A DNA stretch of 12,542 nt from a virus: positions 1 to 12,542 of the IMG/VR virus record IMGVR_UViG_3300020202_000060; one strand, given 5' to 3'. Of the stretch, positions 1-12,542 are shown one piece after another (the first letter of the stretch is position 1; the number at the start of each line of letters is the position of its first letter). The notes beneath the pieces are model-generated. The model was not told the DNA's origin, ran no database searches, and was given only the letters and a program-made list of their open reading frames with translations. The position numbers were made by a program, and so were the translations under genes.

Positions 1-9
1 GATATAATT

Positions 10-54
10 AAACGAACCCTTTTTAAATGGGCATTAAAACGAACCCTTTTTAAA
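10..54 (+). repeat. Two copies of the 18-bp AAACGAACCCTTTTTAAA (10-27 and 37-54, 27-bp period), each with a T5 run; candidate tandem terminators or binding sites
   Basis: Exact direct repeat read from the sequence. It lies just downstream of the last gene of the terminase operon when the ends are joined. Oligo-T runs act as archaeal termination signals. Confidence 0.6.
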
Positions 55-73
55 CCCCCTCCTTCACTTGGAT

Positions 74-85
74 AAAATATAAATA
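74..85 (+). promoter_or_regulatory. TATA-like box AAAATATAAATA upstream of the portal operon
   Basis: A/T-rich TATA-like motif about 60 nt before the portal GTG start. The predicted transcript start would fall near the 106-124 hairpin. Confidence 0.35.
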
Positions 86-105
86 CGCTACTAGTTTCTT
101 AGCAT

Positions 106-124
106 CGCTTAAAGGTTTTAAGCG
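106..124 (+). promoter_or_regulatory. Perfect hairpin CGCTTAAA-GGT-TTTAAGCG in the portal 5' leader
   Basis: 8-bp perfect inverted repeat with a 3-nt loop, read directly, between the TATA-like box and the portal Shine-Dalgarno (SD) sequence. Confidence 0.5.
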
Positions 125-143
125 TAAACAAGAGGTTTCAAGC

Positions 144-1247
144 GTGGGAGAATACAATATAAGTAATACAACAGTAACGGATTTAAAAGGCACCATAAAA
201 GATTTCTCTATCGGAACAAGACAACTTGATAGTGTTAATGCATCAGGGGACACGTTTTATGACAATCCCGACTTCATAAAATATCTATCATATTATAAGA
301 GTATTCCAGAATTAAAGAAGTCTATTGATACATTTGCAACTTATGCAGTAGGTAGAGGTTTCACAGCCGATCCAAGTACAAAAGTTATTCTAGATCACGT
401 GACCGGAGCAGGCGAAGATACTTTTGACAGTATAATATGGAATCTAATCGTTATCAAAAAGATCAACGGAGATTCTTTTGCAGAAGTCATGAGAGAAGGA
501 GACAAGAAGGATGGAGTTATTTTGAACATCAAACCTCTTAACCCTGCCACTATAAGCGTAGTGTACGGATCAGACGGAAGAATCAAACATTATATCCAAC
601 GTAATGAAAAGAACGGGGATAAGAAGCTCGACAAGTGGAGAGTTCTACATCTAATTAATGATCGTATTGGAGATGAAATTCATGGTGTATCCGTGGTTGA
701 AGCCTGTAAATGGATAATTGATGCACGTAATGAAGCCATGAACGACTGGCGCAGAATCTCTCACAGGTCCACTATAAGGGTAATGTATATCGATTCAGAC
801 AATATTACGAAGATCAACCAAGTTAAAACCGAATACGCGGAAGCTATCAAGAAGGGTGAACTTCTTATTATCCCTGCAAAAAGAGGAGAAGCAGAATTTG
901 AAGATTTGCAACTCCCACCCGTTGATGCTTTTCTCTCCTGGATCCGCTACCTAGAGAACGCATTCTATCAAGCGGTAGGCGTTCCGAAGGTCGTCCTCGG
1001 CGGATCCGAGGAGTTTACAGAAGCCTCATCGAAAACTGCGTTAGTAACTTTCGATCAGCAATGGAAGAAAGAGCAGCGTGATCTAGAAGCCGATTTGTGG
1101 AATCAGTTAGCATTAAAGATAATATTGTACGAGCCAATAAGTCTAAAGAACGAGATGATTACAGATGAAAGCAAGAATACTGGACAATTAGGATTTCAAC
1201 CCAATGACGTTACGGCCAACAGCGGAGCCGATGGAGAAGGAGTATAA
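144..1247 (+). CDS. Portal protein (HK97-family-like)
   Basis: 367-aa ORF, GTG start with AGAGG 8 nt upstream. Motif pattern I associate with phage portals: INGDSFAEVMR, RVLHLINDRIGDEIHGVSVVEA, FLSWIRYLENAFYQAVGVPKVVLGG. It heads the head-morphogenesis operon. Confidence 0.8.
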   Translation: MGEYNISNTTVTDLKGTIKDFSIGTRQLDSVNASGDTFYDNPDFIKYLSYYKSIPELKKSIDTFATYAVGRGFTADPSTKVILDHVTGAGEDTFDSIIWNLIVIKKINGDSFAEVMREGDKKDGVILNIKPLNPATISVVYGSDGRIKHYIQRNEKNGDKKLDKWRVLHLINDRIGDEIHGVSVVEACKWIIDARNEAMNDWRRISHRSTIRVMYIDSDNITKINQVKTEYAEAIKKGELLIIPAKRGEAEFEDLQLPPVDAFLSWIRYLENAFYQAVGVPKVVLGGSEEFTEASSKTALVTFDQQWKKEQRDLEADLWNQLALKIILYEPISLKNEMITDESKNTGQLGFQPNDVTANSGADGEGV

Positions 1248-2260
1248 TGGCACCAACAAACTCAAGTAAGCCTAAGCCAAAACCAAAGCCGAAACCTGAA
1301 CCAGAATCAGAATCGCAATCAGAACCAAGACCTAGAAAGGTAGTTAGTATTGCAGGAGAAGAAGTTGATAGTGAACAGTTTATCGCAAGTAAACAACCTG
1401 CTAGAAACTTTTCAAGGCCAACCGGTACAGATCGAAGTCGTGCTGTTGAGATTACAAATTTATCAAGTGCAGAGAAAAGCAGAATATCCCAACAACATGG
1501 ACTGGAAGGAGTAGCAAGACGGGATATTGCATTAGAAAACCAAAAAGCTGAAATTCAAAATCAATTACAACAAGAACGTGCGAAAAGTCTCCAACCGATT
1601 ATTGGACAAGTTGCACAACCAATGCCTGAACAAACTATTATCCCCGGCTCCCCTGTTAATCCTTTAACTCCTGAACAAGCGAAAGAGTTAACCAATACTA
1701 CGCCACCACAACAAACACTTATCGGAAAAGATGAAGCCACAAGCTTGGCCCTTGGTGGAACAAGTATCGGAGCAGGCGCAGCTACTGGCGCAGGTCTTGG
1801 TGCCACAGCAGGTGCAGCTTTTGCTGGTGTTGGTGCTGTACCCGGAGCTATTATCGGGGGAGTTGCTGGCGGAGCAAGTGCAGGTCTTGCTAAAATCTCA
1901 TTTGAAAAAAGAGAGAACGTGGCAGTTGCAACTAAAAACTACAAGCTCGCACGTTCAAATATGAAAACCATAATCAATCAAGTCAATGCTGGAATGATGT
2001 CTCCTGAGGATGCCGTAGTAGCATGGAATGATCAGTTGAATACTATTAATATAGCACATAGAAATCTTAAGCTAGAGACTTCAACATCTCTTGCTCGATT
2101 CTTATCAGGTGGCCGTGTTGAACTAACAGAGATTCAAAACTTTAAAGACAATGAGGAGCTGTTTTTTACGAATAGGTTACAAGCTGCGCTATTAAGTCCT
2201 AATCCTAACTCAATATTTATGGATTTACAAGAAAATGAGGCGCCAAGCTATGACAGCTAA
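1247..2260 (+). CDS. Hypothetical virion protein with an N-terminal (KP)n/(SE)n repeat and a central glycine-zipper hydrophobic segment
   Basis: 337-aa ORF whose ATG overlaps the portal stop (TAATG), with AGGAG upstream. N-terminus is KPKPKPKPKPEPESESQSEPRP. Residues around 165-215 read GGTSIGAGAATGAGLGATAGAAFAGVGAVPGAIIGGVAGGASAGLA. Function not recognised. Confidence 0.7.
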   Translation: MAPTNSSKPKPKPKPKPEPESESQSEPRPRKVVSIAGEEVDSEQFIASKQPARNFSRPTGTDRSRAVEITNLSSAEKSRISQQHGLEGVARRDIALENQKAEIQNQLQQERAKSLQPIIGQVAQPMPEQTIIPGSPVNPLTPEQAKELTNTTPPQQTLIGKDEATSLALGGTSIGAGAATGAGLGATAGAAFAGVGAVPGAIIGGVAGGASAGLAKISFEKRENVAVATKNYKLARSNMKTIINQVNAGMMSPEDAVVAWNDQLNTINIAHRNLKLETSTSLARFLSGGRVELTEIQNFKDNEELFFTNRLQAALLSPNPNSIFMDLQENEAPSYDS

Positions 2261-2408
2261 AAGAACAGCTATTCCAAGCAACGACCAACGTATTTTATCA
2301 AATACCCAGTACAACTGCTCAGGTCCTTTAAGCCTAAGAAATTCAAGCTTTTCCTTTTCTTTTAAGCTCATAAATTTAACAATAAATCGAGGTTTAAAAA
2401 CCTTCTGA
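2250..2408 (+). CDS. Hypothetical 52-aa protein (not in the ORF track)
   Basis: Its ATG overlaps the end of the upstream ORF and its TGA overlaps the next ATG (TGATG), which suggests translational coupling. No recognisable motif; composition is unremarkable. Confidence 0.3.
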   Translation: MTAKRTAIPSNDQRILSNTQYNCSGPLSLRNSSFSFSFKLINLTINRGLKTF

Positions 2409-2554
2409 TGGACGCTGAGTGGATCACAGTTGGAGCCGGTGTTGGGTTCCCCGCTAGTCTCTGTGTTTACCTTCTAGTCCGTATGGAAAAAGCGATTAAT
2501 AAACTAACAGAAGCCGTTACGGTTTTGACGATTAAAATGAAAGGAGGGAATTAA
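2408..2554 (+). CDS. 48-aa single-pass membrane protein, YvrJ-like by eye
   Basis: MDAEWITVGAGVGFPASLCVYLLVRMEKAINKLTEAVTVLTIKMKGGN. The GFP...YLL.R.E.....L pattern recalls the roughly 50-aa YvrJ family. Stop/start coupled to its neighbours. Not in the ORF track because it is under 60 aa. Confidence 0.5.
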   Translation: MDAEWITVGAGVGFPASLCVYLLVRMEKAINKLTEAVTVLTIKMKGGN

Positions 2555-2555
2555 G

Positions 2556-2822
2556 ATGAGTGAACAAAAAGAAGACCTTGGAGCAGTTGATATTGGAGAT
2601 GGGAATAAGCCCTCGTCAACTCCGGTTATTGACTCCGCAAATCAAGCAGCAGAAAGGATGGAAAGAGCTGCCGCAGTCCTCAAAGCGGAAAACGACAGAC
2701 TTGAAATCTTGAGATCTGAAAAGATTCTAGGCGGAATGACCGATGCAGGACAGACAGTCAGTAAACCTGAAATGTCTCCACAGGAATACGCAAGAGCCAT
2801 TCTTGAAGGCAAGATAAAATGA
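2556..2822 (+). CDS. Small alpha-helical protein, possible scaffolding protein
   Basis: 88 aa with a strong AGGAGG 8 nt upstream. Has a coiled-coil-like stretch AAERMERAAAVLKAENDRLEILRSEK. The position between portal and capsid genes is typical of scaffolds. The function is inferred. Confidence 0.7.
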   Translation: MSEQKEDLGAVDIGDGNKPSSTPVIDSANQAAERMERAAAVLKAENDRLEILRSEKILGGMTDAGQTVSKPEMSPQEYARAILEGKIK

Positions 2823-3277
2823 CGCACCTAGTATTGTTAACAAGAGGAAATTTGGAGCATGTAGAGATCTTCATAAAAGAACTACATACGCGATACTTGC
2901 CAATGGACATATACAATCCAGTTACCAAGAAGATGGAGCGCAGATTACAACAGATGCGAGTGTGTCCAGTTCAATTATGGGATATATCATTCCCTGATGA
3001 ACATAAAGACGCTGTGCTAAACACCTGCTTAGCAGGAAATAGTGGGGCGCCAGTTGGAACACATTCAGTCAAGTACAAGCTTGGATTTGCAGCATTACAA
3101 AAAGCTCTGCGTCTAAGCCCTATTCCAGAATATAATAAAAAGGGTAAGTTGGCTATGCGTCCACCAGAACATATCGAGTTAATCGGTATTGGAACTAAGG
3201 ACGATTATTGGATTGAGCCTGATGGAAGCCATGTTTCAAAAGATAAGAAGAGTAAATTAGCAACTGAGGGTATATGA
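2819..3277 (+). CDS. Hypothetical protein (152 aa)
   Basis: ORF overlaps its neighbours by 4 nt at both ends (ATGA). No motif recognised. Confidence 0.65.
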   Translation: MTHLVLLTRGNLEHVEIFIKELHTRYLPMDIYNPVTKKMERRLQQMRVCPVQLWDISFPDEHKDAVLNTCLAGNSGAPVGTHSVKYKLGFAALQKALRLSPIPEYNKKGKLAMRPPEHIELIGIGTKDDYWIEPDGSHVSKDKKSKLATEGI

Positions 3278-3525
3278 CTGAGTGGGAAGATCTAAGCAAG
3301 TTCGAAAGGATAAAAAGAAAGTTTAGATCTTACTCTTTAGAAAAGACCCTGTTAATTCTCTTAACAATTTCATTTTTTTTATTTATTGGTTTTATTCTAG
3401 GTTTCCTAGTTGCATTTGAGTTCATGTGGAGCAAGTCCATTATACTTGCTGAAAAGTTTTTAGATGTCCAACTAAATGGTCAGGCAAAGGAACTAATGAA
3501 AGTTTACTTCTGGAAATTAACATGA
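3274..3525 (+). CDS. Small membrane protein (83 aa, one TM helix)
   Basis: Hydrophobic stretch TLLILLTISFFLFIGFILGFLVAFEFMW after a basic N-terminus. ATGA overlaps on both sides. Confidence 0.65.
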   Translation: MTEWEDLSKFERIKRKFRSYSLEKTLLILLTISFFLFIGFILGFLVAFEFMWSKSIILAEKFLDVQLNGQAKELMKVYFWKLT

Positions 3526-3815
3526 ACATTCCTACTTTTATGTGGCTTAAGAAGTATTTCGATACTGGATACGGTTTAATGAATTACCCTAGAGCATTGA
3601 TGATGGTCATAGGAGTTGGCGGTATTGCTAGAAACTGGAATTGGAAATTACTTATTATTATGGGCATAGCCTACGGTGTATTATGTTTTGTCTCAGGTTG
3701 GCTATACATACTTTTCAAGCTCCAAGATTATGAAAACGAGATTAACAATATCTTAAATCCATTCCAAAGAGAGGTTAGAAAGAAACTTGGCCAGAAGTCT
3801 AAGGTTGTGGGTTAG
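3522..3815 (+). CDS. Membrane protein (97 aa, two predicted TM helices)
   Basis: ALMMVIGVGGIARNW and LLIIMGIAYGVLCFVSGWLYILF segments followed by a charged C-terminal tail, a holin-like topology. The function is inferred only. Confidence 0.65.
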   Translation: MNIPTFMWLKKYFDTGYGLMNYPRALMMVIGVGGIARNWNWKLLIIMGIAYGVLCFVSGWLYILFKLQDYENEINNILNPFQREVRKKLGQKSKVVG

Positions 3816-3924
3816 AGTCGATAAAGAAGAGATCGAACGTATTCGGAGAAAGGCCAAAGAAATGAACATTTCTGTATCAGAGTATATCAGGATCATGTGC
3901 GGACACCGAATAAAAAGAAGATAG
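3805..3924 (+). CDS. Mini RHH (CopG/Arc-like) DNA-binding protein, about 39-45 aa (not in the ORF track)
   Basis: Translation (M)WVRVDKEEIERIRRKAKEMNISVSEYIRIMCGHRIKRR fits the strand-helix-helix pattern. Only TTG starts are available (3805 or 3787). It overlaps the end of the upstream ORF. Confidence 0.4.
   Translation: MWVRVDKEEIERIRRKAKEMNISVSEYIRIMCGHRIKRR
3909..3916 (+). promoter_or_regulatory. Weak TATA-like box AATAAAAA, 22 nt upstream of the ATG at 3938
   Basis: Same 22-nt box-to-ATG spacing as three stronger TATA boxes elsewhere in this genome. No SD precedes the 3938 ATG, consistent with a leaderless capsid-gene transcript. Confidence 0.35.
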
Positions 3925-3937
3925 TTTTATCTCCTGC

Positions 3938-4348
3938 ATGGCTAATGAAGCATCATTAAGAGTAAGAATTGAAGAACCTTTACCTTTTACCGTCGCTGAT
4001 GGAACTGGAATTGAAAAGGGAGCTACATTAAGATTAACTGATCCTAGAACTGCTGCTGCAAATACTGCTAACGGACAAATGGCCGCAGGTATTGCTGCAA
4101 GAGAAAAAGTTGCTTCTGATGGAAGAACTGAATTAGCAGTATACAGACGCGGATGGTTCGACATGAAATGTTCAGGAGCCGTTGTACTTGGTTCTAAATT
4201 AGTATTTGCAGGCGGAGATAATTGCGTAGTACAAGCTACATCAGCACATTCAGGAGCTGCTGTAATTGGAACTGCACTTGAAACTGGAGCAGATAACGAA
4301 GTCATTCTAGTAGACCTTAATATTGGTGGTGGAGGCGTAGGCGGATAA
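3938..4348 (+). CDS. DUF2190-like head decoration/cement protein (by eye)
   Basis: 136 aa, immediately upstream of and overlapping the capsid gene (TAATG). Gly/Ala-rich beta pattern: AAGIAAREKVASDGRTELAVYRRGWFDMK...GSKLVFAGGDN...AVIGTALETGADNEVILVDL. This resembles the small proteins that commonly precede HK97-type capsid genes. Confidence 0.6.
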   Translation: MANEASLRVRIEEPLPFTVADGTGIEKGATLRLTDPRTAAANTANGQMAAGIAAREKVASDGRTELAVYRRGWFDMKCSGAVVLGSKLVFAGGDNCVVQATSAHSGAAVIGTALETGADNEVILVDLNIGGGGVGG

Positions 4349-5211
4349 TGGCAGATCAAGTTGAAATGCAGGATATCAGAGGCCTTGACATTGATAAGGC
4401 AGTTAAAGGTTTCGCATTAACAGAGTATATCTTCAAGAATGCTGTAACAGTTGTTAACACAAGCGCAGATCATATAAGATGGTATCAAGAAACTGCTGCT
4501 GATCTAACTGCAACAGCTCCAATGAGAGTTGCAAACAAAGCTACCTTAGCATTACCTACTGAACTTGAAGTAAGTTGGACAAGAAATACTTCTTATGTTA
4601 AAGAGTACATGGCACAGGGAACTATATCCGAGATGGATATAAAGTCTGCTGACATTGACGTACTTGCTAGAACTCTATTAAGATTAACTAGAGCAGTAGT
4701 TAAACAAGTTGATACAGACATCTACAACGTAGCATCAGAATCTCAAACAGCAGTTAACATTAACTCTGTAACATCCAATGCAGCATGGGATGCAGCATCT
4801 GGACAAGATCCAATAGAAGACATATTGGAAGCTATGCAGAAGATTGAAGAAGCAGATTATGAAACTTCAGGATTAGAAATTTGGTTATCACCTAAAGATA
4901 AGAAGTCACTATTGACTTGGTTGATCTCAACAAAGGGAGCAAGTATACCACAATTTGCATCTGAGAAAGTTGAGAATGGAGTATTAATGACATTCCTAGG
5001 AGCTAAAGTTAGAGTATCTCCAAACGTAGTTGCAGATTCAGCTCTAGTATTAAATCCTAAGAAAGCAGTTACTTACAGACAATTTACTGATACAACCTCA
5101 AAGATAATTGAGAATCCTGGATTGAATAAAATGATTAGAGTATGGGCAAGAGGAATCGCCACTCTAACTGATCCAAAAGCAGTTACTATCATCACTAATA
5201 CTCAGACATAA
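4348..5211 (+). CDS. Major capsid protein, HK97-fold type
   Basis: 287 aa with GGAGG upstream. The C-terminal pattern LEIWLSPKDKKSLL...FLGAKVRVSPNVVADSALVLNPKKAVTY...MIRVWARGIATLTDPKAVTIITN is typical of HK97-like capsid proteins, and the genomic context fits. Confidence 0.75.
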   Translation: MADQVEMQDIRGLDIDKAVKGFALTEYIFKNAVTVVNTSADHIRWYQETAADLTATAPMRVANKATLALPTELEVSWTRNTSYVKEYMAQGTISEMDIKSADIDVLARTLLRLTRAVVKQVDTDIYNVASESQTAVNINSVTSNAAWDAASGQDPIEDILEAMQKIEEADYETSGLEIWLSPKDKKSLLTWLISTKGASIPQFASEKVENGVLMTFLGAKVRVSPNVVADSALVLNPKKAVTYRQFTDTTSKIIENPGLNKMIRVWARGIATLTDPKAVTIITNTQT

Positions 5212-5215
5212 TTCT

Positions 5216-5356
5216 ATGGCATTAGGCACAGTAGTTGATGGGACGGGCACTGTTGGAACAAGATTTTTAGATAAAGATTATCCTAATACTGAAGGTCTTG
5301 TTGCAGGTACTACTATAACTGGTGAAGATCCAACACTTGAGGAGTTAGGAATCTAA
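5216..5356 (+). CDS. Hypothetical 46-aa protein (not in the ORF track)
   Basis: MALGTVVDGTGTVGTRFLDKDYPNTEGLVAGTTITGEDPTLEELGI. It starts 5 nt after the capsid stop and its stop overlaps the fibre ATG (TAATG). Confidence 0.4.
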   Translation: MALGTVVDGTGTVGTRFLDKDYPNTEGLVAGTTITGEDPTLEELGI

Positions 5357-6207
5357 TGGGCGGATTAGGAAGCGGAAGAAAGCCAGACCCTGTAAGATTA
5401 TTAACAGGAGCTAACGAGCCAGTAGGAAGGACTGCAAGCCCTATTGTTTTACCAAATTACTCCGGAGTACCTTTACACGATCCTACAAGAGAAGCATTCG
5501 TATTGAAGGCAGGAGATACCATGACAGGTAATCTTAATATTCTCCCAGATCAAGCGAATTATTCCTTAAAGTTTATGGTTACAGAAAACGGTAATCCTGT
5601 CAGTAAGATTCGTTTTCAGAACACAAGCTTAGGTGATTATGAAATCAATGCAGATGATGCGTACCTTAACTTATCCAAGAGCGTGATAGGTTTCCAAAGC
5701 GGAGTTAAAATCAATGATATGGATTTAACTATCAGTAACATGACTACTTCAGGTTTTCTTAAGAACAGCACAAACGGCTTAATCATGGGCGGTCAGTCAT
5801 CAGGCTTTACTGTACAAGCTGCACAGGGCGGGCGTTTCAATCCTGCTGACGCAACTTCATATTATTTCGGTTGTTCATTTGGCGGATCTTCAGGTAATAC
5901 TACTGCTGACAATGCACGGATCTATATGCCTAAAGCAGGAACGATAACAAGCGTTTACATATTCACTAGAAATGGAACTCCGGGAAGTAATGAGACATCT
6001 ACAATATACGTAAGAAAGAATAATACAGCTGATACAGTTATATCGTCGTCAGTTAAGAACGATCAAACACATGAAGCATTCTCCAATACTGCTTTAAGTA
6101 TAGCAGTAGCACAAGGGGATTATATTGAAATCAAATGGACAACGCCAACATGGGCAACGAATCCATTAAGCACAGAAGTCTATGCAACAATTTACGTAGA
6201 GCAATAG
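5356..6207 (+). CDS. Fibre / receptor-binding-like protein
   Basis: 283 aa with GAGGAG upstream. Contains KAGDTMTGNLNI, the (G)GxMTGxL motif recurrent near the N-termini of phage tail fibres. The C-terminal half is beta-rich. It is the last gene of the rightward structural operon. Confidence 0.6.
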   Translation: MGGLGSGRKPDPVRLLTGANEPVGRTASPIVLPNYSGVPLHDPTREAFVLKAGDTMTGNLNILPDQANYSLKFMVTENGNPVSKIRFQNTSLGDYEINADDAYLNLSKSVIGFQSGVKINDMDLTISNMTTSGFLKNSTNGLIMGGQSSGFTVQAAQGGRFNPADATSYYFGCSFGGSSGNTTADNARIYMPKAGTITSVYIFTRNGTPGSNETSTIYVRKNNTADTVISSSVKNDQTHEAFSNTALSIAVAQGDYIEIKWTTPTWATNPLSTEVYATIYVEQ

Positions 6208-6507
6208 TTATTCTTTATACTCACTATCCCAAACTACTCCGGCACAAGTCCAACCGTTAGACGTGTACTGGTCCATCTCTTCTCCTAGTTTTCTCTTCTC
6301 TGTAAAATCTAATTTATAATTTTTAACTTGAATGAATCTGATATGCTTATCTTTAGGATCGATTGCAATAAGATCACAAAATCCATGAGAGCCACCAGTG
6401 CGTAAGACAATCGGCCAACCTGCTTTTAACAAGGTGTTTCTTACTCTGTACTCTTTAGCTCTACCCCTAGTGTAGTTTGTCGCCATGATTCTGTTTGATC
6501 CATCCAA
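6208..6507 (-). CDS. hjc: Hjc-like Holliday-junction resolvase (PD-(D/E)xK nuclease)
   Basis: RGRAKEYRVRNTLLKAGWPIVLRTGGSHGFCDLIAIDPKDKHIRFIQVKN matches the archaeal Hjc layout (G..xE, ...D-L-I-A..., ...x-V-K). The track start at 6507 is TTG; the ATG at 6486 (MATNYTRG...) is the more likely start. Confidence 0.65.
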   Translation of the reverse strand: MDGSNRIMATNYTRGRAKEYRVRNTLLKAGWPIVLRTGGSHGFCDLIAIDPKDKHIRFIQVKNYKLDFTEKRKLGEEMDQYTSNGWTCAGVVWDSEYKE

Positions 6508-6689
6508 GTAATAACTGCTTCTAGTTCCTCCTGCGCTAGTCTTTTAGCTATACCGAAATTAACCATCATAGATGCTACGATAAACTTTCTATCATTTTCA
6601 TCTACTTTTCCAAATCTCTGGAACTTCTCTCTAACAGTATTCTTTAGCACCTGTAATCGCGCCATCTTTTTATTTAATGTCTGTGACAT
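6441..6689 (-). CDS. Hypothetical helical protein (82 aa)
   Basis: ATG start at 6689. Its 3' end overlaps the Hjc-like ORF by 46-67 nt. No motif recognised. Confidence 0.55.
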   Translation of the reverse strand: MSQTLNKKMARLQVLKNTVREKFQRFGKVDENDRKFIVASMMVNFGIAKRLAQEELEAVITWMDQTESWRQTTLGVELKSTE

Positions 6690-6698
6690 GAGTATGAT

Positions 6699-6806
6699 GC
6701 CGGGTCGTTGAAAAGCGGGAATGGATTAAACCCGTCCCATGCACGTTGCCCGGCTTAGCATGAGTATGACAGGGCGTCACTGGTTTTTAGCCAGATATAG
6801 CCCTAC
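6699..6806. ncRNA. GC-rich structured intergenic element: two nested hairpins, either a candidate structured leader or a small RNA
   Basis: GCCGGG(T) 6699-6705 pairs with (G)CCCGGC 6748-6754 and encloses GCGGG 6715-6719 / CCCGT 6731-6735. AGGGC 6771-6775 pairs with GCCCT 6800-6804 and encloses CTGG 6780-6783 / CCAG 6791-6794. The element is visibly more GC-rich than its flanks. Strand and function are unresolved. Confidence 0.4.
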
Positions 6807-6859
6807 TTTTGTTGTTGAAGGGTACAAAACCATTACCCCAAGATAATAATCGATTTTAA

Positions 6860-6884
6860 TCAGTAGGAAATCGTTCCCTACTGA
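6860..6884 (-). terminator. Stem-loop immediately after the stop of the 124-aa ORF
   Basis: TCAGTAGG (6860-6867) and CCTACTGA (6877-6884) form a perfect 8-bp stem with a 9-nt loop. On the minus strand an A/T-rich stretch TTAAAATCGATTATTATC follows. Confidence 0.45.
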
Positions 6885-7259
6885 TCAGCTTTTACTGGTT
6901 ACTGGCCAAAAGTCAGTAACATAGAGAACATCCTTTAGTCCAGAGCCTATTTTCTGCTTTAGGATATTACCCCAGTAGAACTTCTGTCCTACCCAGTTAT
7001 CCATTTCAGTATTACCTAACTTCTGCAAACAGAGTGTTGTCATTCTGTTAGCACTTGTCTTATTAGGATAGTAAATGCCTTGTGCCTCATTACTAAGCTT
7101 GATCAGTACAGCAAGTTTCTTGTTTTTCTCCCCACTTGGGTCCTGCTGTGTAGGATAAGCCTCGTATCTTGGTTTATCTATAACTTCAAAATGCCTCTCA
7201 CTTTCTGGCATGCTTACTATAAGCTCACCTGTGATAGCTAAGTTTTGTGATTGTACCAT
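6885..7259 (-). CDS. Hypothetical protein (124 aa); weak resemblance to OB-fold ssDNA-binding-like phage proteins
   Basis: Strong GGAGGTG upstream, and its ATG overlaps the upstream stop. The pattern KLAVLIKLSN...LGNTEMDNWVGQKFYWGNIL...VLYV loosely recalls DUF669-type proteins. Not verifiable here. Confidence 0.6.
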   Translation of the reverse strand: MVQSQNLAITGELIVSMPESERHFEVIDKPRYEAYPTQQDPSGEKNKKLAVLIKLSNEAQGIYYPNKTSANRMTTLCLQKLGNTEMDNWVGQKFYWGNILKQKIGSGLKDVLYVTDFWPVTSKS

Positions 7260-7459
7260 TATTTTGCACCTCCTTCTAATTGTGATGATTTTTGGGAAAC
7301 CTCTATTTTTCTACATTTTGCGCAATACCATAATAATCTGCTGGAATTAGGCGGTGTAGCCAATTCTATAATATTAGCCCAATCATGCTCACATTTCTTT
7401 TTCATTCTCTCTTTTATATCAAGCTTTATCATTTTACGAATTTTAACACCGCCTTGCAC
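7259..7459 (-). CDS. Small zinc-ribbon-like protein
   Basis: CEHDW...(21 aa)...CAKC gives a C-x-H / C-x-x-C metal-binding pair. The track start is GTG; an internal ATG (MIKLDIKERM...) may be the true start. Confidence 0.5.
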   Translation of the reverse strand: MQGGVKIRKMIKLDIKERMKKKCEHDWANIIELATPPNSSRLLWYCAKCRKIEVSQKSSQLEGGAK

Positions 7460-7558
7460 ATTCTTCTCTCTTTTTTTCCAGTATAAGGTAACTTCAACAG
7501 CTTCTTTGCTATTGATCTGACATAAGCAATCTCATACTTTTGTCTGCTAATGCGTTTT

Positions 7559-7786
7559 CTATCTTGTTTCATCGTCTTCTACACCCCCGACTACTCGCTC
7601 CATATTACCTACAACCTCAACAAGTCTTGTAACATGAAATCGTCCTGTCTGTCTCTGGTACTCGTCTATTGCATCAGATAGTCTAGTAGTGCGATATACT
7701 GGCAGCTCTCTCCTATCATCTTTCCAAGCTAAAGGAACGGGCATATACCTGCCATCTCTTTGCACTTGAACTTCGTATTCTTTCAT
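7559..7786 (-). CDS. Hypothetical protein (75 aa)
   Basis: AGGAG upstream, and its ATG overlaps the stop of the upstream 45-aa ORF (ATGA). Confidence 0.6.
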   Translation of the reverse strand: MKEYEVQVQRDGRYMPVPLAWKDDRRELPVYRTTRLSDAIDEYQRQTGRFHVTRLVEVVGNMERVVGGVEDDETR

Positions 7787-7920
7787 CTTAATGCTCCTAA
7801 GAAAGATAGTGTCAATGCTAAAGACGCAATTGTCAATACCAACATGTTAATAAGAAGAAAAAGAGTACCAAGATCAAGATCAGGATCATACATGTATTCT
7901 CGTATATGCCAATCCGTCAT
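7783..7920 (-). CDS. 45-aa single-pass membrane protein (not in the ORF track)
   Basis: MTDWHIREYMYDPDLDLGTLFLLINMLVLTIASLALTLSFLGALR. GGGGG sits 7 nt upstream of the ATG, and its stop overlaps the next ATG. Confidence 0.5.
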   Translation of the reverse strand: MTDWHIREYMYDPDLDLGTLFLLINMLVLTIASLALTLSFLGALR

Positions 7921-7952
7921 AGTAAACCCCCATTAGAAGAATAGAAGGAAAA

Positions 7953-7993
7953 CGCCCGAACCGGGAATCGGACCCGGGTCTCCTGCGCGACAG
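7953..7993 (-). other. 3' half of a tRNA-Asp(GUC) gene (anticodon loop to discriminator); candidate attP core
   Basis: The minus strand reads CTGTCGC (loop, anticodon GTC, T33, G37, C38) - GCAGG - AGAC (4-nt variable) - CCGGG TCCGATT CCCGG (T arm) - TTCGGGC - G73. The five bases 5' of the loop (GCCCC) do not pair with GCAGG, so the tRNA similarity stops at the anticodon loop. There is no 5' half and no CCA. Confidence 0.6.
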
Positions 7994-7999
7994 GGGGCA

Positions 8000-8161
8000 T
8001 CATAGATATCTCCCCGGAGCAAGCTTGCCCTTTTTGATTAGTCTTTCAACAATACACTTTGCTATCTCTTTTCTTGAACTATTATCTTCATCTCTTGCTA
8101 ATAGTTTCAAAGCTTTATTGACTTTTATTGGTATAGCAGTCTCCACCCTTACTTTTTTCAT
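8000..8161 (-). CDS. RHH (CopG/Arc/MetJ-like) transcription regulator, 53 aa (not in the ORF track)
   Basis: MKKVRVETAIPIKVNKALKLLARDEDNSSRKEIAKCIVERLIKKGKLAPGRYL shows a clear beta-strand/helix/helix pattern. It is divergent from the integrase, and a TATA box lies 22 nt upstream of its ATG. Confidence 0.7.
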   Translation of the reverse strand: MKKVRVETAIPIKVNKALKLLARDEDNSSRKEIAKCIVERLIKKGKLAPGRYL

Positions 8162-8182
8162 GTCACATTTAACAAAGTGATC

Positions 8183-8190
8183 TATTTAAA
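8183..8190 (-). promoter_or_regulatory. TATA box TTTAAATA (minus strand) for the RHH/leftward operon; leaderless geometry
   Basis: The 3' edge of the box is 22 nt from the ATG at 8161, and no SD lies between them. Confidence 0.55.
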
Positions 8191-8224
8191 TGTTGTGGTG
8201 ATCTACCGGTATGTTACCGTAACC

Positions 8225-8232
8225 TTTATATA
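8225..8232 (+). promoter_or_regulatory. TATA box TTTATATA for the integrase; leaderless geometry
   Basis: The 3' edge of the box is 22 nt from the ATG at 8254, and no SD lies between them. Confidence 0.55.
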
Positions 8233-8253
8233 GTCTCCCTCTAGTGAATTATT

Positions 8254-8901
8254 ATGAGTAAGAAAGCCAAGATTGAGAAAAGGCATCTAACTGCTCAAGA
8301 TATCGACGATATATGCAGGACTATACGCACAAGTCGCAGATATTTACCTAACAGAGCAGGAGAGTTTATGAGAGCAAGAGATCAGACAATAATTAAGTTA
8401 TGCAGTCTCTGTGCTCTACGCCCTAGTGAAGCATTGATGTTAAAATGGTCTGATATTGATTTTGATAATAAGCTGATTAATATAGAAGCAGGAACTAATA
8501 AAGAGAATCAGGGCAATAACGCCTTGCTTATTCCTCAAGCATTAGAGATATTATATGAGTATAAACAAGTCTATGATCAATATTTAGCAGCCGAGTTCTT
8601 ATTCCCCTCATTAGTTAGTTTCGAGCCATTAACATTATCTGCATTTGATAAGATATTTCTAAAGATTCAGAAAGAAGCAGGATTGTATAAGGTCCTATGG
8701 TATACTTCAGCAGGTCAACCAATATCATCACACACACCATATGATTTGAGAAAGCACGCTGGTACTAGGTTTTATAGGCATACAAGAGATCCATACAAGA
8801 CAATGAGATTCTTAAGACAAAAGAAGATGACTTCAATAATACCTTATTTACATAGTGAGATCACAGATATTTACACAGACGCAGCACTTGCTTTCTCTTA
8901 A
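8254..8901 (+). CDS. int: Tyrosine recombinase / integrase (short, 215 aa)
   Basis: Box I-like ALRPSEALMLKWSDIDF (Arg). Box II-like HTPYDLRKHAGTRFY (..LR.H). C-terminal IIPYLH supplies the candidate catalytic Tyr. It lies next to a tRNA-fragment attP candidate. Confidence 0.8.
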   Translation: MSKKAKIEKRHLTAQDIDDICRTIRTSRRYLPNRAGEFMRARDQTIIKLCSLCALRPSEALMLKWSDIDFDNKLINIEAGTNKENQGNNALLIPQALEILYEYKQVYDQYLAAEFLFPSLVSFEPLTLSAFDKIFLKIQKEAGLYKVLWYTSAGQPISSHTPYDLRKHAGTRFYRHTRDPYKTMRFLRQKKMTSIIPYLHSEITDIYTDAALAFS

Positions 8902-8934
8902 TGTGTGTGTGCGTGTGTGTGTGCGTGTGTGTGT
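8901..8934. repeat. 34-nt perfectly alternating purine-pyrimidine tract, (GT)n interrupted by two GC
   Basis: ATGTGTGTGTGCGTGTGTGTGTGCGTGTGTGTGT begins at the last base of the integrase stop codon. Confidence 0.9.
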
Positions 8935-9018
8935 CACATTTTTCCCCCCTAAGAACCCCCCTTTCCATGGGAAATATAAGCACCTTGTGCTATACCTATA
9001 TTTCCTATAGAACCTTAA

Positions 9019-9038
9019 CTTACCTACCCTTACCTACC
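9019..9038. repeat. Tandem 10-bp repeat CTTACCTACC x2 within a C-rich, G-poor stretch
   Basis: Read directly. Confidence 0.85.
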
Positions 9039-9054
9039 TTGTCTTACTACACTA

Positions 9055-9072
9055 ACACACACATACACACAC
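9055..9072. repeat. 18-nt alternating tract ACACACACATACACACAC, an imperfect inverted partner of the 8901-8934 (GT) tract
   Basis: Its reverse complement is GT-rich, and the two tracts bracket about 120 bp. Confidence 0.85.
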
Positions 9073-9211
9073 TCACTTGATCGGAGTTCAGATATTTACG
9101 TACACCTATGCAGTCCTTGCCTGCTAATGGGTTTTGTGTATATCACCGCTTCGTTCGCTTCGCTCACTCCGCTAACGTCCCCCCCCGTCGTAGCTTGAAA
9201 AGCTCGTATAG

Positions 9212-9238
9212 CTAAGTTAATACCTTGTATTAACTTAG
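9212..9238. repeat. Perfect 11-bp inverted repeat CTAAGTTAATA-ccttg-TATTAACTTAG
   Basis: Arms at 9212-9222 and 9228-9238 are exact reverse complements. Candidate operator or hairpin. Confidence 0.85.
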
Positions 9239-9426
9239 GATAGTAGCGTTCAACGTACGTACGTAGTGTAGTTAGCATAGTAATCTAAAGAACGAAGCCG
9301 TAAGGCTGAGTTAGTTAGTAGTAATAGCATAGTACGTATGTAGTGCAACACGTCAACGTGGGGCAATATAACGTCATTTAGAGCGATAGTTGAAGCGTTT
9401 GTACTTTTCTTGGGTTATCTCAGCAG

Positions 9427-9474
9427 AAAAATTTTTATTATTTTTTATTTTTAAAAAAAAGAAAAAAATATATA
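9427..9474 (+). promoter_or_regulatory. 48-nt block that is A/T apart from one G, ending in the TATA box AAATATATA (9466-9474)
   Basis: The box 3' edge is 22 nt from the ATG at 9496. The block could also act as a DNA-unwinding element. Confidence 0.55.
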
Positions 9475-9684
9475 GTGTATCATCTTTACTACCCTATGAG
9501 CTTAAGCGATAAGATTGAAATTTCCCTTTCAGATTCCTATAATAATCGACTAAAGGTTGAAGATGTTAAAGAAGCTGTAAATGAATTGAAAGAGAAAGTT
9601 AGTTTATTTGAAAACCTCAACGGTGGACAAATGGTTCTAAGATGGATAGACGAAATATTCGGAGATAAACTAAGTGGAAGTTGA
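9475..9684 (+). CDS. Small acidic hypothetical protein; true start probably the ATG at 9496 (62 aa)
   Basis: The track start at 9475 is a GTG inside the promoter. MSLSDKIEISL... begins at 9496 in leaderless geometry. It is the first gene of the terminase operon; a small-terminase role is only a positional guess. Confidence 0.6.
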   Translation: MYHLYYPMSLSDKIEISLSDSYNNRLKVEDVKEAVNELKEKVSLFENLNGGQMVLRWIDEIFGDKLSGS

Positions 9685-9859
9685 AGATTTAGGTATTAAG
9701 GTAGTCTCTAAGGATGAAGCCTTATGGACAGAAGTTAAGGAAGCAGCAGAGAAAGAACTAGAATCTATTGAAGATAACTATTTCAGAACAAAGACATTCC
9801 AAACAGCAATTAGGGAACTATGTATAAACAAACTTGCAGAGATTAGTAATGATAAGTGA
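9674..9859 (+). CDS. Small acidic helical hypothetical protein (61 aa)
   Basis: GTG start overlapping the upstream ORF, followed by a double stop TGATGA. No motif recognised. Confidence 0.5.
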   Translation: MEVEDLGIKVVSKDEALWTEVKEAAEKELESIEDNYFRTKTFQTAIRELCINKLAEISNDK

Positions 9860-9945
9860 TGACGAACATAGACAGACAATGCATTGTTTAGAAGTAGCAT
9901 TAAGACAAATTAATAGTGAAGTTAGTTGGATAAGGCAGTTACTAG

Positions 9946-11298
9946 TTGATTTCTTGGAGAAGAATGATAGTCCTAGATGATTGGCAAAAAGAAGTTTTGA
10001 GTTATGATAAAGATCTTCTATTGTGCACTGGCCGTAGAGTTGGTAAGACGTACATACTAGCGAGAAAGGCGTGCGAAGAGATGGTGAATAAACCCAATAC
10101 GCCAGTCATTGTTGTATCATTAACCGAAGATCAAGCGCAACTGATTATTTCTATGGCTCTTAATTACTTACAAGATCATTACCCGAAGATGATTGCAAAG
10201 GGGCAGAACAAACCAACACAGAAAACCATCACACTAACAAACAAGTCGAAGATGATATCGCGCCCTGTTGGAAATACTGGAGATGGAGCGAGAGGATTTG
10301 AAGGAGGAATCTTGATAGTGGATGAGGCTTCCAGAATGCCCCGTTCGTTTTGGATTGCTGGAAAGCCTGTACTGCTAACGACAAACGGACGCATATGGAT
10401 GGCATCAACACCGTTTGGAAAGCAGGGTTACTTCTGGGAGAGATTCGACGAAGCATATAACAAGAAGAGTCCTAGTGCGAGATTCAAAGTATTCTATATA
10501 TCAACAGAGGAAGTAATGAAGAACAGACCAATAAGTGATAGTTGGACGGAGGAACAGAGAGAGGGAGCATTGAGAATACTTGATGAAGATCGAAAGGAGA
10601 TGTCGGAGATCGAATACGGACAAGAGTATCTCGGATTGTTCCTAGACGAGTTAAGACAGTTCTTCCCTGATGAATTAATTGACAAGTGTTGTATACTACA
10701 GAGAAACCCTAATATGACGGGTGATAAGTTCTTAGGGGTTGACATTGCGAGAATGGGAGATGATGAGAGTACGTTTGAAGTTATTAACAAGCTAGATGGG
10801 AAATACTATCATGTAGAATCGCAGATAACAAAGAAGACATATACAACGCAGACAGAGCAGAAGATCATAGAGCTTGATAAGATGTGGAACTTTGTTAAGA
10901 TTGGAATTGACGCGGGGTCTGGATCGCTAGGAGTTGGCATATACGATCATCTGTTACAATCAAACATTAAGAGAAAAATTGAAGCTATGAACAACAGAGC
11001 AATAGCACAGGACAGAGATGGAAAGAAGAAAGTGACTTTACAGAAAGAAGATTACTATGATAACTTACGAGGTATGATGGAACGTGGAGAGATCAAGCTA
11101 TTAGATGATGATAATGTCAAGGCCAGTCTTAGATCTGTACAGTGGGAGTTTACTAATACAGAGGAAGATGTGCAAGAAGGAAAGATCTCTAAAGTGAGGA
11201 TATTTGGTAAGTATACCCACGTAGCCGAAGGTATAATCAGAGCTGCATGGCTTGCGAGAAAAGCGAAGAATTTAAATTTCCAGATATATTACGTATAA
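9946..11298 (+). CDS. terL: Terminase large subunit
   Basis: Walker A-like CTGRRVGKTY, Walker B ILIVDEAS, coupling motif MASTP, and nuclease-domain acidic motifs GVDIARMGDDESTF and IGIDAGSGS. The track start is TTG; the ATG at 9964 (MIVLDDWQKEVL) with GGAGA upstream is more likely. Confidence 0.85.
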   Translation: MISWRRMIVLDDWQKEVLSYDKDLLLCTGRRVGKTYILARKACEEMVNKPNTPVIVVSLTEDQAQLIISMALNYLQDHYPKMIAKGQNKPTQKTITLTNKSKMISRPVGNTGDGARGFEGGILIVDEASRMPRSFWIAGKPVLLTTNGRIWMASTPFGKQGYFWERFDEAYNKKSPSARFKVFYISTEEVMKNRPISDSWTEEQREGALRILDEDRKEMSEIEYGQEYLGLFLDELRQFFPDELIDKCCILQRNPNMTGDKFLGVDIARMGDDESTFEVINKLDGKYYHVESQITKKTYTTQTEQKIIELDKMWNFVKIGIDAGSGSLGVGIYDHLLQSNIKRKIEAMNNRAIAQDRDGKKKVTLQKEDYYDNLRGMMERGEIKLLDDDNVKASLRSVQWEFTNTEEDVQEGKISKVRIFGKYTHVAEGIIRAAWLARKAKNLNFQIYYV

Positions 11299-11299
11299 G

Positions 11300-11452
11300 A
11301 TGCCAGATAAGGTAACAATAGGAAATATTACTATAAGTCGTTCACTAACTTCAAACGGTGATGTAGTAGTATCGGAAGATAAATTTGCAGAAATCGTTGC
11401 ATTGGAAAAATTACGCGAGGAAATAATTAAACTACATCTAGGGGCCAAATGA
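11300..11452 (+). CDS. Hypothetical 50-aa protein (not in the ORF track)
   Basis: MPDKVTIGNITISRSLTSNGDVVVSEDKFAEIVALEKLREEIIKLHLGAK. It starts 2 nt after the terL stop, and its stop overlaps the next ATG (ATGA). Confidence 0.45.
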   Translation: MPDKVTIGNITISRSLTSNGDVVVSEDKFAEIVALEKLREEIIKLHLGAK

Positions 11453-11811
11453 GCTGGACGTTGTGCACAAGCGGAGCAGCAATAATTAAAGCAGGTACTG
11501 GTGCAAGTACAACTATTGTAGGATCGGGTGCTGCATTGGCTGAAATGAGCGACGAGGTAGAAGCATTTATTTGTGATGCACTAAGAGTTGACGTTGTAAC
11601 TAATTACGGATCGCTAACTAGTAATGGTAAGAAACTCCTTGGAAGATTAGCAGCATCTATGATTGCACAGGACATGGTAGATTATGATACAACTGGTTAC
11701 AATAGCGCAAGAGAGGCAGAACTAAAACTTGACAAACTAGAAAACGATATTTCCAAAGCTCTGAAGTTATTGGAAGATGATAAAGTTAAAGCATACTTGC
11801 AGGCGACTTAA
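11449..11811 (+). CDS. Hypothetical virion protein (120 aa), possible head-completion/adaptor protein by position
   Basis: Tightly coupled ORF between terminase and portal, with a helical C-terminus (REAELKLDKLENDISKALKLLEDDKVKAYL). The function is inferred from position only. Confidence 0.6.
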   Translation: MSWTLCTSGAAIIKAGTGASTTIVGSGAALAEMSDEVEAFICDALRVDVVTNYGSLTSNGKKLLGRLAASMIAQDMVDYDTTGYNSAREAELKLDKLENDISKALKLLEDDKVKAYLQAT

Positions 11812-12422
11812 TGGCACTCCAAACAAAGTTTAGGCGATCACCTGAAAAGGCCATAGCCTCTTATTCTTATTTTGATATTGCAGAAGGTAGCGGCTTAATT
11901 GAGTTTCTCCCATTTCTAACAACTAGTGATGGCAGTAATCTAAGCGGAGCCATGACAATTAATACAAGTGTATATGGTGCAAGTTCAGGGGCAGCAAACT
12001 TAACAGCAACTAACAAAGACTTTGATGTAGTTTTCAACTTACCTAAGATTATAGAGGGAAATGCATTTTGTATAACTCCGATAAGGATCCAAGGAACCGG
12101 AAACGGCAAGGTTTATGCAACTATTAAACACGTGGATTTAAACGGAGTTGAAACAACAATCGGAGCACAAGCTACATCCGAATCTGTGATTGGTGGCGGT
12201 GGCGGTGTTAGTGCTGATAAAAAAGTAATCACAAAGTTCACGATTGCAAGAAAGAAATTTAAGAAAGGAGAGAAGTTAAGACTTAATCTTTCAGGAGCTT
12301 CAAGCGGAAGTGTGGAGAAAGCAGATATTGGACTATCACCAGTTAATACTCAATTATCGACGGTATTTGCAACTAATGGGAGCAGATCAAGCCTATTTAT
12401 CCCATTCAGAAACGAGATATAA
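11811..12422 (+). CDS. Hypothetical beta-rich virion protein (203 aa)
   Basis: TAATG overlap with the upstream ORF. Ser/Thr/Gly/Asn-rich beta-type composition with a GGGGG linker. It ends inside the terminal repeat and is followed by the T5-containing tandem repeats. Confidence 0.6.
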   Translation: MALQTKFRRSPEKAIASYSYFDIAEGSGLIEFLPFLTTSDGSNLSGAMTINTSVYGASSGAANLTATNKDFDVVFNLPKIIEGNAFCITPIRIQGTGNGKVYATIKHVDLNGVETTIGAQATSESVIGGGGGVSADKKVITKFTIARKKFKKGEKLRLNLSGASSGSVEKADIGLSPVNTQLSTVFATNGSRSSLFIPFRNEI

Positions 12423-12542
12423 TTAAACGAACCCTTTTTAAATGGGCATTAAAACGAACCCTTTTTAAACCCCCTCCTTCACTTGGATAAAATATAAATA
12501 CGCTACTAGTTTCTTAGCATCGCTTAAAGGTTTTAAGCGTAA
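12416..12542. repeat. Terminal direct repeat, right copy (identical to 1-127)
   Basis: Same 127-nt string as 1-127. The stop codon of the 203-aa ORF (12420-12422) lies inside it. Confidence 0.95.

Follow-up and report, generated by a model that had tools for sequence, protein, structure and literature searches.

The 12,542 nucleotides (nt) of the IMG/VR virus record IMGVR_UViG_3300020202_000060 (positions 1 to 12,542, analyzed in full and referred to here as the window) contain a single divergent junction, a 92-bp spacer at 8162-8253 between a leftward gene for a 53-amino-acid (aa) protein and a rightward gene for a tyrosine integrase (int). The sequence of this spacer indicates that it very probably carries two divergent archaeal promoters, each consisting of a TATA box and a TFB recognition element (BRE), which are placed so that transcription should start on the ATG of either gene and yield mRNAs predicted to be leaderless. 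As judged from sequence comparison, a large family of ~12-kb tailed viruses and its probable DPANN hosts use this arrangement of BRE, TATA box, 22 nt, and ATG as their general grammar of expression; at least five such promoters are predicted in this genome (Table 1).

For comparison, we used 86 relatives of the virus (80 genomes from IMG/VR and six from NCBI assemblies); the window together with the 80 IMG/VR relatives made up a set of 81 genomes. The spacing was examined in this set by a box-centered approach independent of gene calls, in which each exact TTTAWATA was paired with a downstream ATG that lies within 60 nt and opens an open reading frame (ORF) of at least 40 codons. Among the 173 distances obtained, 63 were 22 nt and 12 were 23 nt, compared with about two for every other distance, and 63 of the 88 pairs separated by 20-26 nt (given as about 66%) had a spacing of exactly 22 nt. 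With one mismatch or fewer in the box, 137 pairs were found at 22 nt vs. ~18. The promoter sites (n = 159) precede 63 unrelated protein clusters, and within the largest of these clusters the non-TATA promoter positions are just 41% identical, which argues that the spacing is kept by selection and is not merely inherited. At positions that were not selected for, the family logo consists of a BRE (MGAAA) at -36 to -32, two unconstrained bases, the TATA box at -29 to -22, T at -10 (68%), T at -1 (61%), and A at +1, with few G between -20 and -1.

A position matrix covering -40 to -1 was built from the relatives only, with the ATG excluded, and both strands of the window were scanned with it (24,830 positions). 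The sites before 8161(-), 9496(+), and 8254(+) ranked first, second, and sixth, respectively. Six positions scored at least 10, including an A/T tract at 9461, and five of the six have an ATG exactly at +1, given a background ATG frequency in the window of 0.0166 of positions; in these five cases (8161(-), 8254, 9496, 11300, and 2371(-)) the box occupies -29 to -22 of the ATG. Markov-simulated genomes yielded 1.05 matrix hits and 0.02 hits with an ATG, vs. the five with an ATG that were observed. In two complete relatives (L087 and L092), the predicted +1 coincides with independently called gene starts. An earlier sequence-only reading had described four promoters, before 8161(-), 8254, 9496, and 3938, whose boxes end 22 nt ahead of the A of the ATG, and a gap of 34 bp between the divergent boxes (8191-8224); these coordinates and spacings are all exact. 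Three of its sites (8161(-), 8254(+), and 9496(+)) are far beyond chance, whereas the box before 3938, already described as weaker, lacks matrix support in this genome (score -5.3, rank 346). Since the promoters before 11300(+) and 2371(-) had been missed, the count becomes five strong sites and one weak site instead of four.

The genes behind the strong promoters also stand apart in their translation signals. All five start with ATG, and their longest match to the anti-Shine-Dalgarno (anti-SD) sequence is 3-4 nt and not G-rich; by comparison, 10 of the 24 other genes have a match of at least 5 nt to AGGAGGTGATC at -20 to -3, a match seen at 6.4% of background positions. The dichotomy of promoter-proximal genes without an SD site and internal genes with one is thus supported, in agreement with the sequence-only reading, which had noted the lack of SD sites at 8161 and 8254 and their use by internal operon genes. 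The start at 3938 likewise has no G-rich SD site. We infer the positions of the transcription starts from the placement of the boxes.

The grammar extends to what is probably the host lineage. The stretch at 7950-7993, recognized in the window by eye and by genome matching, is taken to be the core of the phage attachment site (attP) because of its tRNA-Asp matches in archaeal genomes. A 23-nt piece of this core was found in two of 185,579 species-representative genomes, both archaeal, and all 44 nt are matched exactly in a Woesearchaeota metagenome-assembled genome (760-kb contig CAZNJU010000001; L005 2017-2060), where the match is a tRNA fragment between two integrase genes, as expected at the borders of integrated elements. 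In the other of the two archaeal genomes (L006 4157-4228), an intact tRNA-Asp(GTC) has the same T-arm and acceptor as the core, and from it the identity of the tRNA was taken. In the window itself, ARAGORN and Rfam detected neither a tRNA nor an RNA family except for a chance mir-466 match on the (TG)n repeat. These matches suggest that the host is probably a Woesearchaeota-like DPANN archaeon, and the archaeal host assumed by the sequence-only reading is backed by the tRNA-Asp core. We found no integrated copy flanked by attL and attR, and metagenome scans with an intergenic 27-mer and a 41-nt piece of the att core matched nothing.

When applied to the Woesearchaeota locus (L005), the virus-derived matrix placed +1 on the ATG of four genes (688(-), 6516(-), 6789, and 7360). 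One of these four starts belongs to an AbrB-like ORF, whose longest reading frame begins 117 nt further upstream. On L006, the matrix placed +1 at 4155, and the mature 5' end of tRNA-Asp follows two nt later; a predicted start just ahead of a tRNA gene indicates that the fixed distance is a feature of transcription, not of translation. The assignment of these boxes to archaeal TATA promoters, first made in the sequence-only reading, is therefore borne out by the 22-nt spike, by the logo with its BRE, promoter-proximal element (PPE), and initiator (Inr), and by the occurrence of the same grammar at the Woesearchaeota locus and before the tRNA gene.

The divergent spacer may in addition contain an operator. 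About 14 of the 34 bp between the two boxes are taken up by the two BREs, and any operator would correspond to the central ~20 bp (8198-8217). The 34-bp gap has dyad matches at 11 of 17 positions (p = 0.0008 by shuffles), a value equaled by 0.0017 of genomic 34-mers, and the imperfect palindrome in it has a perfect core, TACCGGTA (8204-8211), that is unique in the genome; its center is the exact midpoint between both boxes and between both ATGs. Two exact copies of the octamer GTGATCTA lie 21 nt apart, i.e., two helical turns, and bracket the BRE and TATA box of the leftward promoter, rather than being evenly spaced between the two promoters. There are four copies of this octamer in the window vs. 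0.45 expected, and none of 200 shuffles reached four; the other two exact copies are inside the portal gene (391-398 on the minus strand and 1078-1085). The dyad symmetry and the paired repeats support a regulator-binding site, and we tentatively propose, as a reading that falls somewhat short of even chances, that the central 20 bp and the TAGATCAC repeats form a site for a small dimeric regulator, for which the 53-aa protein would be the best candidate.

It is also conceivable, though on balance unlikely, that the promoters are real and leaderless while no virus-specific operator exists and the 53-aa protein has another role. The repeats and the palindrome would then be by-products of the symmetric placement of the BREs and TATA boxes, or targets of host factors. 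Consistent with this, both promoters fit the generic grammar of family and host, 4 of the 11 dyad matches (hand-counted) fall within the BREs, and an 8-nt direct repeat and a GC-containing 8-nt palindrome each occur in 11% of genomic 92-nt windows. However, only 1.1% of such windows hold both features, dyad symmetry of this degree is seen in only 0.17% of 34-mers, and neither the position of the palindrome center exactly midway between the promoters nor the 21-nt phasing of repeats around one BRE and TATA box would be expected from this alternative. A further point in favor of this alternative is that the 53-aa protein shows no detectable match to a DNA-binding family, whether ribbon-helix-helix (RHH) or other.

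The sequence-only reading had labeled the 53-aa protein as RHH, a label for which we found no support. Searches of Pfam (E up to 5), NCBIfam, PHROGs, and PDB sequences returned nothing, BLASTP gave no alignment with the verified RHH protein of the same genome (3787-3924), and a Foldseek search of the PDB with the model of the protein gave no match. A HMMER search of 1.8 billion representatives retrieved only the protein itself and spurious long repetitive proteins, and a word search of 5.8 billion proteins found no relatives. In a single-sequence AlphaFold2 model (predicted local distance difference test score, pLDDT, of 67), residues 1-11 are extended and helices span 12-21 and 28-44. In RHH proteins, the strand forms only in the dimer. 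By its secondary-structure pattern alone, in a low-confidence model, the 53-aa protein is compatible with an RHH-like fold. The proposal of an operator and lysogeny switch made by the sequence-only reading is therefore upheld in part, by the dyad symmetry and the paired repeats, and weakened by the unsupported RHH fold and by the lack of any relative with the module.

A different role for the 53-aa protein would be that of a recombination directionality factor (RDF), i.e., an excisionase-like protein, acting alone or also as a repressor and controlled together with the integrase, instead of a repressor that maintains lysogeny. In phages P2 and 186, Cox and Apl, respectively, combine an excisionase with a repressor role. 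The 53-aa protein is small, basic, and helical, and its gene lies between the attP core and int so that the three make up one cassette, which is absent from the 86 relatives and would therefore travel as a unit. On the other hand, the protein resembles no known excisionase family, its gene heads an eight-gene operon, as is more typical of an early regulator, and to our knowledge the archaeal integrases characterized so far need no RDF. We regard a purely or partly excisionase-like function as improbable.

Several observations weigh against a regulated pair of leaderless promoters at this junction. A leader of 1-5 nt is also compatible with the sequence evidence, and leaderless transcripts are a prediction. 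Of the five promoters, that of the integrase scores lowest (10.5); its base at -10 is G instead of T, and that at -1 is T (T and C, respectively, in the leftward promoter). Part of the symmetry of the spacer comes from the BREs, and the central 20 bp have 7 of 10 dyad matches (hand-counted; binomial p ~0.005). Near the other four promoters, we found no convincing copies of the operator motifs. As for the presumed regulator, the 53-aa protein has no homolog, family, or fold match, and its binding to DNA is putative. Finally, the back-to-back arrangement is unique among the 81 genomes, which leaves no conservation test of the pair: a search of the relatives for back-to-back promoter pairs with strict and relaxed criteria produced one doubtful case only (L072), and the integrase, the 53-aa gene, and the promoter pair are found in none of the 86 relatives.

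Based on the features above, we propose that 8162-8253 probably functions as a compact bidirectional control region with two divergent archaeal core promoters, in each of which the BRE, two nt, and an 8-bp TATA box at -29 to -22 would make the host RNA polymerase initiate at the A of the ATG. Both transcripts would be leaderless, the rightward one encoding the integrase and the leftward one the 53-aa protein and, behind it, the SD-led early genes as far as 6208. Leaderless mRNAs are translated without an SD site. A regulator bound at the palindrome and repeats would occlude TATA-binding protein (TBP) and transcription factor B (TFB) at its own promoter, which would result in autorepression of the early operon, and would at the same time sit upstream of the integrase BRE.

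The location of the attP core may add a second layer of control. It separates the 53-aa gene from the SD-led gene that follows (ATG 7920), and the matrix predicted no further minus-strand promoter between 8161 and 6208; because of this position and the lack of another minus-strand promoter, integration would part the early genes from their promoter. Recombination with tRNA-Asp would keep the 53-aa gene and int side by side at attR under the bidirectional control region; the seven early genes further downstream would lose their only promoter and come to lie behind the tRNA gene of the host. We consider it doubtful that integration rewires the leftward operon in this way, with lysogeny resulting partly from topology, through a disconnection of promoter and operon that is undone on excision, and with the small protein serving as an autoregulated regulator or an excision factor.

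It is extremely unlikely that the octamers represent elements of bacterial promoters or AT-rich words arisen by chance and that the mRNAs carry ordinary leaders: a G+C content of 39% does make AT-rich octamers common, and sigma-70-like matches are present in the window, but we rejected sigma-70 promoters as such sites occur at the expected frequency (33 found vs. 34.4 expected), and against the whole explanation stand the archaeal hallmarks of the 22-nt spike with its BRE, PPE, and Inr logo, the matches of the att core, which are to archaeal genomes only among the species representatives searched, and the simulations (0.02 matrix hits with an ATG vs. five observed).

Table 1. Positions of the predicted promoters, the candidate operator elements, and the associated genes in the window.
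Feature	Position	Strand	Remarks
TATA box, leftward promoter, TTTAAATA	8183-8190	-	-29 to -22 of ATG 8161; matrix score 17.8, rank 1 of 24,830
BRE, leftward promoter, CACAA	8193-8197	-	3/5 match to family consensus MGAAA at -36 to -32
TATA box, integrase promoter, TTTATATA	8225-8232	+	-29 to -22 of ATG 8254; score 10.5, rank 6
BRE, integrase promoter, CGTAA	8218-8222	+	4/5 consensus positions
Direct repeat copy 1, GTGATCTA (TAGATCAC on the leftward strand)	8177-8184	+	-23 to -16 of leftward promoter
Direct repeat copy 2, GTGATCTA	8198-8205	+	-44 to -37 of leftward promoter
Imperfect 22-bp palindrome, GGTGATCTACCGGTATGTTACC, candidate regulator site	8197-8218	.	center 8207.5
53-aa orphan ORF, first gene of leftward block	8000-8161	-	predicted start = A of ATG 8161; independent gene call agrees on start
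Tyrosine integrase, 215 aa, apparently monocistronic	8254-8901	+	PF00589 E = 1e-17, 64.9 bits vs. cutoff 27.1
attP core, CTGTCGCGCAGGAGACCCGGGTCCGATTCCCGGTTCGGGCGTTT, 3' part of tRNA-Asp(GTC), anticodon loop to discriminator + TTT	7993-7950	-	6 nt past stop of 53-aa gene
TATA box, rightward structural-module promoter, AATATATA	9467-9474	+	ATG 9496 = +1; score 14.4, rank 2
BRE of 9496 promoter, AGAAA	9460-9464	+	
Predicted internal promoter, TTTAAATT, BRE CGAAG	11271-11278	+	within 3' end of terminase gene; ATG 11300 = +1; score 12.7, rank 4
Predicted promoter of 48-aa ORF, TTTTTAAA, BRE CAGAA	2393-2400	-	ATG 2371; score 12.7, rank 5
Weak box, AATAAAAA	3909-3916	+	22 nt before ATG 3938; score -5.3, rank 346

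Bases 1-127 of the window are an exact direct repeat of 12416-12542, which indicates a circularly assembled genome of 12,415 bp, and four independent samples yielded the same genome (99.9-100% identical). Among the sites where this genome was obtained are those of ERZ27257313, SRR7003765, ERZ27257319, and JGI 3300021062. The contigs from these samples that carry the integrase (L001-L004) provide no comparative signal at the promoters, as they differ by only two single-nucleotide polymorphisms (8963 and 8999), both of which fall outside the promoters, inside the non-coding stretch after int. The genome encodes a portal protein, an HK97-type capsid protein, a cement-like protein, and a large terminase (TerL), and is therefore that of a very small tailed virus. 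Its terminase has 1,355 relatives at E ≤1e-10, on contigs that mostly end at about 11.5-13 kb, and their size and common portal, capsid, cement-like, and terminase genes indicate, on sequence grounds, a large family of ~12-kb tailed viruses. The best named TerL matches are archaeal tailed viruses; GenBank phage records contain no close relative of the family, which may already be described in the DPANN-virus literature.

Genes are arranged in a minus-strand block from 8161 down to 6208, i.e., the eight-gene operon headed by the 53-aa gene, and a plus-strand block that starts at 8254 and continues round the circle to 6207. The integrase also matches a PHROG integrase (7.5e-22), and its best NCBIfam match is the archaeal XerA (4.7e-12, below the curated cutoff). 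In its translation, ALRPSE, YDLRKH, and IIPYLH were recognized, by eye only, as candidate catalytic motifs, and a run of five T (8940-8944) follows its stop codon. IMG/VR peptide patterns and a database of 5.8 billion proteins yielded no relatives of the integrase but itself, and all five of the contigs that bear it are the circular genome itself or its fragments. Moreover, phmmer searches with three tyrosine recombinases as queries detected no tyrosine integrase in the 86 relatives, and this genome looks like the sole temperate member sampled in the ~12-kb family.

The weak box before 3938 sits inside the coding sequence of a Pfam-verified RHH gene (3787-3924), and in 23 relatives the homolog of gene 3938 (cement-like) is preceded by a strong box at a distance of 22 nt from its ATG. 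The RHH gene itself encodes a NikA/CopG/MobA-like protein (Pfam E = 1e-8), has a TTG start with the SD site GAGGT, and is located directly before the capsid genes; no homolog of it was found in the 80 relatives. The 48-aa ORF on the minus strand (2225-2371) has a hydrophobic C-terminus and occupies an otherwise unexplained gap of 147 nt in the plus-strand block. The ORF shares its first ten bases, ATGAGCTTAA, with gene 9496, and there is an overlap between its promoter (2393-2407) and the start of gene 2408. Related genomes, too, have several internal promoters in their structural modules.

The non-coding stretch after int is 595 nt long (8902-9495) and contains a (TG)n/(CA)n inverted repeat (8902-8934/9049-9076) as well as C-runs; an A/T-only tract (9420-9475) precedes the 9496 promoter. 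The relatives have a non-coding gap of 670-860 nt at the matching genomic position, and the stretch is possibly a replication origin or a packaging site.

Archaeal leaderless promoters are textbook knowledge and small RHH regulators of archaeal viruses are known, and our results are an extension and annotation, not a new principle. They provide a strong sequence-derived promoter grammar for the ~12-kb tailed viruses, a large and little-known family, and for the DPANN archaea that are probably their hosts; with this grammar, gene starts, transcription units, and host domain can be read off metagenomic contigs. The 92-bp region is an experimentally tractable candidate for the first lysogeny or integration control circuit in a DPANN-infecting virus. 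If integration does disconnect the early operon from its promoter, the virus would be the only temperate member found in the ~12-kb DPANN tailed-virus family.

Parts of the proposed system have counterparts in other mobile elements. Archaeal tyrosine integrases of the pNOB8 type target tRNA genes, their attP core is the 3' part of a tRNA gene, and int remains intact on integration. The same organization is predicted for this virus, in which the attP core corresponds to the 3' part of a tRNA gene and int would stay intact; unlike those of pNOB8-type elements, its integrase is a short orphan (215 aa, catalytic domain only). In the switches of phages P2 (C/Cox) and 186 (CI/Apl), sigma-70 promoters are placed face to face, and a separate immunity repressor is co-transcribed with int. 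As in P2 and 186, an integrase on one side and a small candidate DNA-binding protein that heads an early operon on the other share one short control region. The virus differs from these phages in that its promoters are archaeal, back-to-back, and predicted to be leaderless, int is apparently monocistronic, and no second repressor gene is evident.

The promoters themselves closely follow those mapped in archaea, in which an 8-bp TATA box has its center near -27, the BRE lies near -33, and -10 and -1 are occupied by an A/T-rich PPE and a pyrimidine, respectively. In the same maps, ATG is the start codon of 94.9% of leaderless mRNAs, and leaderless starts belong mainly to single genes or to genes that come first in an operon (PMC5316973). 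Of the protein-coding transcripts in Haloferax volcanii, 72% are leaderless (a term that covers primary 5' ends lying 0-5 nt ahead of the start codon), and ~80% of these begin on the start codon (PMC4983044). Similarly, the first genes of Sulfolobus operons usually lack a ribosome-binding site, and later genes have one (PMC2699501). The leaderless promoters of H. volcanii, Saccharolobus solfataricus, and Thermococcus onnurineus (PMC4983044, PMC5316973, PMC2699501) share with those predicted here an A-rich BRE immediately before an 8-bp A/T TATA box, an A/T element at -10, a start site with pyrimidine (-1) and purine (+1), an ATG without an SD site, leaderless starts of operon-first genes followed by SD-led internal genes, and transcription from the start codon. 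Unlike the mapped promoters, those of this ~12-kb tailed virus with a probable DPANN host are predicted from sequence, their spacing is very tight, and many of them are internal to the structural module; our literature search found no promoter mapping for the DPANN group.

The closest parallel to the proposed regulator is the F55/T_lys lysogeny regulator of SSV1. F55 is a 6.3-kDa RHH protein that maintains lysogeny and binds tandem repeats over the BRE and transcription start site (TSS) of early promoters as well as of its own promoter (PMC5569661). The 53-aa protein differs from F55 in having no detected sequence similarity, its RHH fold and DNA binding being putative, and the repeats are confined to the divergent region instead of recurring at other early promoters. 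The integrase gene of SSV1 is split on integration, and here attP lies outside int. Like SSV1, however, this virus has a tyrosine integrase and appears to be temperate, and it encodes a protein of ~6 kDa (53 aa here vs. 55 aa; PMC5569661); as in the F55 circuit, the TAGATCAC repeats lie within or adjacent to the candidate regulator's own promoter and overlap its BRE/TSS region.

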